Shown here in pieces: positions 58,202 to 60,314 of a stretch of 64,000 nt of DNA. The translations under genes were made by a program, and so were the position numbers. The stretch is from NCBI RefSeq assembly GCF_030384885.1, contig NZ_CP128613.1; one strand, written 5' to 3'. Below the pieces are notes generated by a model. The model did not search any database. It saw only the letters and a program-made list of their open reading frames with translations, and had not been told where the DNA came from. This DNA comes from Escherichia coli. Lineage in GTDB: Bacteria > Pseudomonadota > Gammaproteobacteria > Enterobacterales > Enterobacteriaceae. How positions within the stretch are numbered: position 1 is the stretch's first letter; each line of letters starts with the position of its first letter.

Positions 58202-58600
58202 TCAATATCCTAACGCTGGTCTTTTGCCTGTATTAACTGATTTAGCTGGTTTGCTACATATTAATGCCTTCAGATTTTCCCTTTCCTTGTCTGTGATACT
58301 GTCGCAAACCCTACTAGCCCATTCTACTTCACTCTTCTCCAGGCATTCTATTTTCTTATTGCTCATTGTTCTAATGTTTGGTGTTGCATCTCCATTTAAT
58401 AACATCCATGTTTCATTTTTCTTCATAAAACATCTTCCATTATGTTCAAAGATATTAGGTGTGAATATATTATCAGAATCCCATGTTACGACTTGCTCGA
58501 GGGCTATATTATCTTGATAGTCCATGCCAGCATTATAATAATCACAAGATATAATTATCATGGAAATAATTATCACTAATATCTTCCCAAGCATTTCCAT
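58202..58600 (-). CDS. Putative lipoprotein immunity protein for the Rhs C-terminal toxin (132 aa)
   Basis: ATG immediately follows the Rhs TAA; signal peptide with lipobox IISC; AT-rich; classic toxin-then-immunity arrangement. Confidence 0.6.
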   Translation of the reverse strand: MEMLGKILVIIISMIIISCDYYNAGMDYQDNIALEQVVTWDSDNIFTPNIFEHNGRCFMKKNETWMLLNGDATPNIRTMSNKKIECLEKSEVEWASRVCDSITDKERENLKALICSKPAKSVNTGKRPALGY

Positions 58601-60124
58601 TTACTTTACCTCTTGAAATTCAAATGGGAATCCAGTGAAAGGACCTTTAGGCATAATATATCTTTGATATCCATAAAGCTCACCGAGCACTTGTAGGCTT
58701 ATAGGCGCATTTGTATTCATAGAGGGGTTGTTAAACCCGCACGCCTCAAAAATCATGTTCGTTCGGCTAAAACAATTATTTAAAACAGGAAGAGGCCCGA
58801 GGTTAATAGTTTTTAGTTTTTTATTAAGGTCTATTGCCTTATTCATCATACATTGTTCTTCTTCATCTGTTGTATCTATTATCCAAATCCAGGTATCTCT
58901 GCGGGGTTGCATCTTTTTAAAATAATCAGAGACAGAGGCTCCCATCTCATCCCCAGTTCCCGAACTCATTAATCCATATCGATTTGCCGCCGCAGCATGC
59001 CCAAAAGGATTATCAGGAACGGGGCCGTTACCTATTATCATAGTACTAAGCCCTAATGGATCAACGTGTTGCACTGGATTCAGCGGATATTGGTACAGAT
59101 TCCATCCCCCCTTCAGCCCAATCGGGTCCTGGATGATATACCTCCCCTGCAACGGATCGTAGTACCGGTTCCGGTTATAGTACAGCCCTGATTCCTCATC
59201 ATGCTGCTGCCCCGGCAGACGGTATGGCTGGTGCAGGTGATGCGGATTCTCCTCATTCAGCAGGTTGCCCCATTCATCATATTCCGCGCTCCACACCGTT
59301 TTGCCGTCTTCGCTGATGAGCGCCAGCGGCAGGCCCCGGTGGTCGCAGTGGTAAAGATGAACTTTTCGCGCCGGTGTGTATTCCGGCTCCACCTGTCTGG
59401 CCAGTTGCTCCACCGTCAGCCCGCACTGCGCAAGCCACGCCCGGCTTTCACTGCTCACGCGGTCTGCCCGGATTTCTTCCTCCAGTCTGTCCAGCAGCCG
59501 CACCAGTTCAGCCGGAAATACCACACCATGACCGTCCTCGCTCCCTTCCTGCTGTAACTTCTCCGCCAGGCTCCGGCGCTGCGCTTTCTCCAGTTCGGTC
59601 ACGTCTGTTTCGATGCGGATGAGCGGTGTGAAGCTTCCCGGCTCGTATACCGTCTGGATACGCGTGGTGTCGGTCTGTACCGTCGCCAGCCTGTCGCCGT
59701 CCCACCCGTACCACGTTACCTCCGGTTTACGCGACAGCGACATCCACCCCGTCAGGTCACGTACCCGCCGCCACACCCGTTTCCCCGTCCGGCGGCCCAG
59801 CGGGTCGTAGAGGTAGCGGCTCTCGACCAGTGGCTCGCCATGCTGTATCCGCGTGTAGAACACCAGGCGGTGCTGGCTGTCGTAGTGGTAGTGGTGGGTC
59901 CGCTCGTCGTCCGTCCGTATCACACCCGCCGGGATGCGGTCCGTCTTCTCCGTCAGCCTGCCGTATTCATCGTGGCGGTACCAGTGCATCATCGCGTATC
60001 TGTAAGCGGATATCAGAAGGCGCTTTCCAGCCGGGGCCAAAAATCCCCACAGGCGCAGGCGTCTTCGTCCGGTAGCTGCTGTAGGTGCGGGAGAGAATGA
60101 ACGGCAGCGGGCCGGGCAGCGCAA
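58601..60124 (-). pseudogene. Rhs 3' segment: core end plus C-terminal toxin domain of unrecognised family, out of frame with the 5' fragment
   Basis: Contains Rhs core sequence [12 protein letters not shown] ... [45 protein letters not shown], then about 150 AT-rich codons with no recognisable motif; the first about 47 codons of the ORF are the 5' fragment read in another frame. Confidence 0.75.
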
Positions 60125-60314
60125 GGTCCGTCTCGCCGGGCAGCACCTTCGCCCCCAGCAGCGGATTTACCGGGTTGCCCGAAGTCATCCCGCCCGGACA
60201 CACCGAGCACGCCACGCCGGTGGGCGCGCCAATTCTTACACCTGCCGAACCCTGGACAATGGGACCGCCATACTGAGTCATATCTCCCTGACGCGCCGCT
60301 GGTTTTCCGCTCAT
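59967..60314 (-). pseudogene. Rhs 5' fragment (PAAR-like N-terminal region, 115 codons)
   Basis: MSGKPAARQGDMTQYGGPIVQGSAGVRIGAPTGVACSVCPGG... matches remembered Rhs N-termini up to ...[10 protein letters not shown], then diverges and terminates near 59985, where the frame of the 3' segment takes over. Confidence 0.75.

Follow-up and report, generated by a model that had tools for sequence, protein, structure and literature searches.

What does a broken Rhs element still encode, and what would its toxin module do? The question is raised by positions 58202-60983 of the Escherichia coli DNA analysed here, a stretch of 64,000 nucleotides from contig NZ_CP128613.1 (assembly GCF_030384885.1) that we call the window. 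This segment is the E. coli rhsE locus, with the order ansP-yncG-yncH, vgrG-rhs-immunity, group II intron, ISAs1; it is identified by its flanking genes, namely ansP, yncG and yncH at one end and ISAs1/ydcC, yddH and nhoA at the opposite end. We consider it likely that the locus holds a vgrG-rhs cassette of a type VI secretion system (T6SS) that has been disabled as a weapon and retains an intact toxin/immunity pair, the toxin tip being a predicted acyl enzyme of envelope lipids. The tip, so far without annotation, is a new member of a toxin group that was described recently, and its immunity family is new; it is not a new kind of system.

The toxin tip and its predicted fold

The cassette comprises the following features:

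60381-60983, minus strand: 3' remnant of vgrG (its last ~200 codons), with the upstream region and the 5' 1.5 kb deleted
59981-60314, minus strand: rhs 5' fragment, the N-terminal 112 codons with the PAAR-like/DUF6531 region (RHS_core positions 1-112, E = 1.9e-71)
59978-59980, minus strand: junction of the internal rhs deletion with TAC microhomology, from base-level comparison with strain 2013C-4282
59048-59977, minus strand: rhs 3' core fragment ending in DPLGL (59048-59062; RHS_core positions 949-1261, E = 8.9e-202)
58604-59047, minus strand: toxin tip of 148 codons with the candidate catalytic residues His17 (58997-58999) and Cys92 (58772-58774)
58202-58600, minus strand: predicted lipoprotein immunity gene of 132 residues, lipobox IIS-C with the Cys19 codon at 58544-58546 and Asp at +2

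Two minus-strand open reading frames (ORFs), of 115 residues (59967-60314) and 507 residues (58601-60124), overlap here out of frame. On the RHS_core model (NCBIfam NF041261, 1261 positions) the shorter ORF matches positions 1-112 with 241 bits and residues 47-359 of the longer one match positions 949-1261 with 673 bits, and thus model positions 113-948 are missing; neither fragment reaches the full-length cut-off of 2000 bits. The 3' core is also matched by Rhs_assc_core (TIGR03696; E = 2.9e-24, 85 bits against a cut-off of 32.5) and by the Pfam model RHS (PF03527; E = 1.3e-17). The original prediction had read the two ORFs as 5' and 3' Rhs segments overlapping in different frames. This stands in outline; however, the 5' fragment is real rhs from 60314 to 59981 only, and the 3' segment is Rhs from residue 47 on, its first 46 residues being an out-of-frame read of the 5' fragment. 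The same prediction correctly described an intact core terminus followed by about 150 AT-rich codons: PxxxxDPxGL lies at residues 349-359 of the 507-residue ORF (DPLGL at 355-359), the variable tip of 148 codons follows, and the G+C content, 0.62-0.645 in the core, drops just past the terminus and is 0.34-0.39 in the tip and in the ORF that follows.

The tip matches nothing in Pfam (even at E<=10), NCBIfam or PADLOC, and a search of PDB sequences with the single sequence and with a profile gave matches solely via the Rhs core end. Close relatives, 54-100% identical, occur in E. coli, Salmonella, Citrobacter farmeri and Hafnia. When a profile of these was scored against 1.84 billion representative proteins, 353 representatives were retrieved at E<1e-3 and 193 at E<1e-10. 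In almost all of them the domain sits at the extreme C-terminus right after DPxG(L), in host proteins of ~150 to 2489 residues. The profile search shows the 148-residue tip to be a member of a large family of predicted C-terminal toxin domains of Rhs-type polymorphic toxins. Throughout 62 diverse members, which share 24-84% identity with the query, the residues N13, G16, H17, G25, S28, G30, R50 and C92 are invariant, and with them the 'permuted' catalytic order in which His17 precedes Cys92. The Pfam model Lnb_N/DUF4105 (PF13387) matches two of these 62 relatives at E<=1e-3 and eight at E<=0.1 (best 2.2e-6); the Pfam models Peptidase_C92 and DUF6695 match none of them.

An AlphaFold2 model of the tip, computed with the family alignment as input, reached a predicted local distance difference test (pLDDT) score of 92.5 and a predicted template modelling (pTM) score of 0.87. 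As modelled, the tip shows a papain-like fold of the permuted NlpC/P60 type. It matches permuted NlpC/P60 enzymes that act on acyl groups, namely YiiX, TseH and MARTX RID, and the papain-like alpha+beta fold is common to the model and to YiiX, LRAT and TseH. The values listed in the structure comparison are 10.5 for YiiX, 9.9 for the T6SS effector TseH, 9.0 for the Bacillus cereus cysteine peptidase 3kw0, 7.5 for the MARTX RID fatty-acyl transferase and 5.1 for PPPDE; canonical NlpC/P60 peptidases and Tae4 stay at or below 4.4. In a Foldseek search of AFDB50, Rhs proteins of E. coli and Hafnia came out on top. Below them, at E = 1e-12 to 1e-6, ranked proteins labelled 'DUF4105' or 'Lnb N-terminal periplasmic domain' along with numerous proteobacterial Rhs C-termini. 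Lnb is the lipoprotein N-acyltransferase of Bacteroides. Thus the toxin family, at first held to be unrecognised, can be placed: it is sizeable, and Foldseek ties it to DUF4105/Lnb_N, a group described recently as lipid-targeting toxins of the T6SS (Nicastro et al., PLoS Biol 2026; PMC12994826).

The immunity gene and the partners of distant relatives

The first base of the 132-residue ORF, 58600, directly follows the TAA of the toxin ORF, and an AGAGG Shine-Dalgarno sequence lies 9-13 nucleotides before its ATG. The encoded protein begins with MEMLGKILVIIISMIIIS followed by the lipobox cysteine; K6 falls into a basic n-region, residues 7-17 form a hydrophobic stretch, and I-I-S-C19 follows. 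The abutting start and the lipobox IISC had both been pointed out before, and both are confirmed. All eight aligned orthologues carry a lipobox (IISC, ITSC, IVSC, LVAC, ITGC), which is therefore not a chance match. Invariant among these eight are C19, D20, Y21 and Y22 as well as C57, C86, C99 and C115, and the latter four cysteines would fit a disulfide-bonded periplasmic domain. According to the Lol-avoidance rule in Enterobacteriaceae, Asp at +2 keeps a lipoprotein in the inner membrane. Asp20 occupies this position and thus suggests that the immunity lipoprotein is retained there.

Orthologues directly follow the toxin in Citrobacter farmeri and on a metagenome contig, and others are found in Hafnia and S. 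bongori. The order toxin-immunity, in which the stop and start codons overlap or abut, is kept in E. coli (at two loci), in Citrobacter farmeri and on the metagenome contig. The gene is annotated merely as 'hypothetical protein' (WP_000425544.1). AFDB gives the name 'Lipoprotein' to orthologues from Hafnia and elsewhere. No match was found for the ORF in Pfam, NCBIfam, PADLOC or PDB sequences; matches to NANM/YjhT (E = 0.009-0.08) were judged to be noise. Structure prediction, proposed early on for both proteins, worked well for the tip and gave a moderate AlphaFold2 model of the immunity protein (pLDDT 78), for which no structural relatives beyond its orthologues were found. The immunity protein represents an undescribed Enterobacterales family of predicted lipoproteins with an invariant Cys-Asp-Tyr-Tyr.

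For more distant relatives of the tip, 20 loci from species-representative genomes (drawn from the narrower alignment A5) and a Solimonas locus were inspected, and 18 had readable downstream DNA. An envelope protein is encoded next to the toxin in all 18: seven small proteins of ~80 residues with two transmembrane (2-TM) helices, six ankyrin-repeat proteins with a lipoprotein-type signal and five N-terminally anchored proteins of ~110 residues. These partners independently support an extracytoplasmic or membrane site of action. An envelope-acting toxin had originally been deduced from the lipoprotein immunity protein; genomic context now backs this idea. At least three unrelated envelope immunity types thus surround one toxin fold, which suggests repeated replacement of the immunity gene. 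A comparison by hhalign of the 2-TM partners with Imm-Act1-type proteins, discussed below, revealed no sequence similarity, though the architecture is alike.

Within E. coli, DNA of tip plus immunity gene is present in 542-566 of 5426 complete genomes (~10%), mostly on a full-length 'RHS element core protein', and the pair occupies two or more loci. No match to the module was found in plasmids, and a literature search found no paper citing the accessions of the toxin or immunity protein. At a second rhs locus (yafV-ivy-fadE) of strain ST70 (NZ_CP102244.1, 3144-7779) the Rhs is frameshifted, the tip is interrupted and the immunity gene is intact. An 82-residue C-terminal piece of this tip is called as a separate gene, and the same 'hypothetical protein (x2)' pattern appears in many genomes of the match list.

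Predicted activity of the tip

Salmonella Tox-Act1 is a lipid-targeting T6SS effector with a permuted NlpC/P60 core (PMC12994826). It is toxic solely in the periplasm and cleaves phosphatidylglycerol (PG) and phosphatidylethanolamine (PE); its toxicity is abolished by H43A or C151A and neutralised by the 2-TM protein Imm-Act1 (PMC12994826). Tox-Act1 is evolutionarily near DUF4105 (Lnb) and TseH, and in the published tables many Rhs C-terminal domains are listed, together with a single E. coli protein annotated Rhs+DUF4105, QMP79959.1, in the sheet 'DUF4105b' (PMC12994826). By accession and organism no overlap was found between the tip relatives and these homologue tables, which are redundancy-reduced samples, so that its absence speaks neither for nor against membership. 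The tip of the window and Tox-Act1 have much in common: both are antibacterial domains linked to T6SS with a permuted NlpC/P60 fold, in which a His before a Cys is essential or invariant; both show similar local motifs (GH-x-A and [ND]NC), and in both cases an envelope-located immunity protein is encoded immediately downstream. However, the His-Cys spacing is ~103-108 residues in Tox-Act1 and 75 residues in the tip, and Tox-Act1 is PAAR-fused or stands alone, whereas the tip is carried by an Rhs shell.

For a direct comparison of sequences, a Tox-Act1-type alignment (A6) was built from an Aeromonas plasmid homologue listed in table S3A and seven plasmid relatives. Its motifs (…TGHAFVS…, …TGNNCTTH…) agree with the peptides encoded by the published Tox-Act1 mutagenesis primers; a query with the peptides decoded from these primers recovered no Tox-Act1 candidate. 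From the weak profile match to this alignment, given below, we conclude that the tip most probably belongs to a sequence family of its own, which shares superfamily and ecological class with Tox-Act1, and is not a Tox-Act1 orthologue.

As a side observation, Tox-Act1-type toxins, stand-alone or PAAR-fused and accompanied by small downstream 2-TM genes, are frequent among plasmids, with 76 PLSDB records, of which the majority are predicted to be conjugative. The plasmid loci examined came from Aeromonas, Enterobacter, Klebsiella, Providencia, Vibrio and Photobacterium; the Klebsiella record, labelled plasmid, is 5.37 Mb in size and evidently a chromosome.

Other known proteins are more remote. 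TseH of Vibrio cholerae with its partner TsiH (PDB 6v98; DUF6695) shares 7% identity with the tip, and TseH is a stand-alone cargo effector and not an Rhs tip. YiiX / Peptidase_C92 (PDB 2if6, 3kw0) shares 9-13% identity, and YiiX has no link to toxin delivery. Lnb (PF13387) is the nearest Pfam model for the tip relatives and the nearest annotated non-Rhs Foldseek neighbour, and it employs Cys-His acyl-enzyme chemistry. In contrast to the tip, however, it is a housekeeping membrane enzyme and not a toxin, and the tip itself lacks a Pfam match.

On these grounds the following mechanism can be envisioned. In the intact allele the Rhs shell would be mounted on VgrG via its PAAR-like N-terminus and be fired by the T6SS, and the tip would be released by autoproteolysis at DPLGL. 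Acting from the periplasm, its putative Cys-His dyad would then break fatty-acyl ester or amide bonds in envelope lipids or transfer the acyl group. The most probable chemistry, with Tox-Act1 as the best precedent, would be a phospholipase A-type attack on PE and PG. The immunity lipoprotein, anchored in the inner membrane and facing the periplasm, would bind and block the incoming toxin.

Alternatively, the tip might be an Lnb/DUF4105-like acyltransferase or deacylase that acts on lipoproteins or another acylated envelope molecule instead of being a general phospholipase. Such a role would agree with the Pfam and Foldseek neighbourhood described above, and the immunity protein, too, is a predicted lipoprotein, its C-D-Y-Y start being invariant. 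Moreover, Lnb being a lipoprotein N-acyltransferase, it is of note that lipoproteins have been raised as possible Tox-Act1 targets (PMC12994826). Yet a toxin of such activity has no known experimental precedent, Tox-Act1 and TseH, the only toxin relatives characterised, showed phospholipase activity, the tip reaches no Pfam threshold, and its relatives also use immunities that are not lipoproteins; we thus regard this alternative as unlikely. Even less should be expected of a peptidoglycan amidase or endopeptidase like Tse1 and the Tae family, with the lipoprotein as a Tai-like inhibitor. The tip is indeed a member of the NlpC/P60 superfamily, cell-wall effectors typically have an immunity protein that faces the periplasm, and TseH was first proposed as an endopeptidase (PMC12994826). 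However, the catalytic order is permuted, with His before Cys, and many relatives pair with small 2-TM proteins, not with soluble periplasmic inhibitors. In addition, cells intoxicated by Tox-Act1 lyse with their rod shape kept, and TseH has phospholipase activity (PMC12994826). Taken together, an amidase is quite improbable.

A lipid-attacking tip in a disabled T6SS cassette is consequently the reading we prefer, yet several points weigh against it. We infer the substrate from fold relatives alone. The hhalign match of the tip family (A3) to A6 is weak (probability 7.7% and pairwise E = 0.0045 over 65 columns, the last of them at the Cys motif), and therefore the transfer of 'phospholipase' from Tox-Act1 spans a superfamily and not a family. 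The proximity of His17 and Cys92 is assumed from the fold match of the model. Imm-Act1 has two transmembrane helices, whereas the immunity protein of the tip is a predicted lipoprotein. PAAR-Rhs proteins are usually fused to toxins that act in the cytoplasm, so that a periplasm-acting Rhs tip would be the less common case (PMC12994826). Finally, both deletion junctions of the cassette, described below, are unique among the 5426 complete genomes, and an assembly error may have occurred.

Deletions at the rhsE locus and their meaning

An intact allele is found at the same place in strain 2013C-4282 (locus L001): a vgrG of 2109 bp (2985-5093), directly downstream an rhs gene of 4221 bp (5160-9380) for a 1406-residue Rhs with PAAR-like N-terminus, annotated as RHS element core protein, then the same tip and the same 132-residue gene, followed by a group II intron and ISAs1. 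In its retained parts the window matches this allele at 100% identity. Window 60984-59978 equals L001 4490-5496 at 100% identity, and window 59980-58100 is likewise 100% identical to 2013C-4282. Against this allele, two deletions are apparent. The first comprises 1871 bp and took the vgrG 5' end (~1.5 kb) together with the promoter/upstream region, with TA microhomology at window 60983-60984, leaving the last ~200 codons of vgrG. The second removed 2507 bp of the 4221-bp rhs gene, with its junction at window 59978-59980 (TAC microhomology); as 2507 is not a multiple of 3, the rhs frame changes there. Since vgrG is truncated too, the whole vgrG-rhs operon is disabled, beyond rhs alone, and no deliverable Rhs protein can arise from the locus. 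The decay of the element, as originally proposed, is thereby borne out. Of the ~4 kb core, described there as mostly lost, the loss amounts to ~60% of the gene and not to nearly all of it.

The rhs breakpoints lie inside an imperfect direct repeat of the core of ~40 bp (window 59940-60020; L001 5466-5496 and 7975-8003; L035 5454-5554). In strain 300709 an independent deletion of ~2.5 kb occurred in the same repeat, with a junction 25-30 bp from that of the window. K-12 rhsE carries a third and different deletion, a single one (L001 ~2918-7356), and TOK-001 a fourth. Because the breakpoints differ, the rhs deletion of the window is neither the classical one of K-12 rhsE nor one in common with 300709. 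Consequently, with independent deletions in finished genomes, the locus is deletion-prone, and rhsE appears to be a recurrent deletion hot spot.

Neither junction of the window was found in any of the 5426 complete E. coli genomes. Either the deletions are private to this genome and recent or, less likely, they reflect an assembly error. In the latter case the source strain would possess an intact vgrG-rhs, and sequence of the multi-copy vgrG and rhs genes would have been mis-joined. Besides the absence of both junctions elsewhere, the 100% identity of the retained DNA to the intact allele speaks for such an artefact, as does the occurrence of rhs and vgrG sequence at a median of 6-7 places per genome. 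However, the junctions fall on microhomologies of 2-3 bp and not on long identical repeats, and the finished genomes of K-12, 300709 and TOK-001 demonstrate that independent, differing deletions do arise at this locus. We therefore hold an artefact to be very unlikely.

K-12 rhsE, a pseudogene with ydcD downstream, offers a comparison by position. It occupies the same chromosomal locus (ansP-yncG-yncH … ydcC-pptA) and has likewise lost vgrG and the 5' rhs core and kept 3' core, tip and downstream gene. It differs in its independent deletion and in encoding the RhsE tip and YdcD instead of the tip and immunity gene of the window. Orphan Rhs modules, such as rhs-orphan of Salmonella Typhimurium, consist of a promoter-less 3' core, tip and immunity gene and can recombine with full-length rhs genes. 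In contrast to these, the window gene retains its own 5' end, shifted out of frame by 1 bp, which marks a deleted main gene and not a displaced orphan. With ~0.9 kb of 3' core homology kept in the window rhs, re-activation of the module is plausible on the ground that orphan modules recombine.

A scan of the module for promoters and terminators gave six promoter-like sites against 5.4 expected from shuffling. A promoter-like site at the core/tip boundary (59037-59064) and a terminator-like hairpin in the tip (58929-58948), both on the minus strand, were seen; the counts lie within shuffled expectation. As no promoter or terminator signal above this expectation was detected around the module, an internal promoter is not claimed. 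Downstream of the immunity gene, three features complete the locus:

58066-58170, minus strand: short orphan rhs core-end fragment (…QYDDESELHYNWHRYYNPGQG…), read from the sequence
56164-58050, minus strand: group II intron, Rfam matches group-II-D1D4-2 at 57864-57981 (93.1 bits) and Intron_gpII at 56164-56239 (62.8 bits)
54898-56034, minus strand: transposase ORF of the ISAs1 family (H-repeat, ydcC-like), with which the Rhs element closes

In TOK-001 an orphan rhs fragment is annotated, to whose start the core-end fragment aligns. The group II intron adjoins it downstream and is complete, with D1-D4 and D5-D6 Rfam matches; GTGTG stands at 58050. Its reverse transcriptase/maturase ORF (56241-57758, 505 residues) corresponds to ltrA, annotated at the same place in 2013C-4282. 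The intron is context and lies outside the toxin module. ISAs1 then follows, and its transposase has the annotation ydcC / ISAs1 family at the same position in 2013C-4282 and K-12.

In the genome of the window, the module probably serves just as retained immunity against kin with the intact weapon (~10% of E. coli), and it may also act as a recombination substrate, as donor or recipient, for other rhs copies. One might speculate that the tip is Lnb-like, not a general phospholipase, and de-acylates or mis-acylates the acylated N-termini of envelope lipoproteins at the inner membrane, and that the immunity lipoprotein, with its invariant lipidated Cys-Asp-Tyr-Tyr start, protects as a pseudo-substrate retained in the inner membrane and plugging the acyl-binding groove of the toxin; this is a long shot, which, if true, would mean that toxin target and principle of immunity are both new.

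Returning to the lipid-attacking tip and its immunity lipoprotein, about one in ten complete E. coli genomes holds the pair under no other annotation than 'RHS element core protein' and 'hypothetical protein'. The placement of the tip among permuted NlpC/P60 enzymes gives it a testable predicted function, periplasmic attack on lipids, and candidate residues, H17 and C92. It would add an Rhs-borne, lipoprotein-neutralised branch to a toxin group characterised so far for Salmonella Tox-Act1 and Vibrio TseH, and the immunity family could show how inhibitors anchored in the inner membrane intercept lipid-targeting effectors. Finally, rhsE decays repeatedly by independent deletions with the immunity gene kept, which bears on how bacteria lose a weapon and retain the shield.

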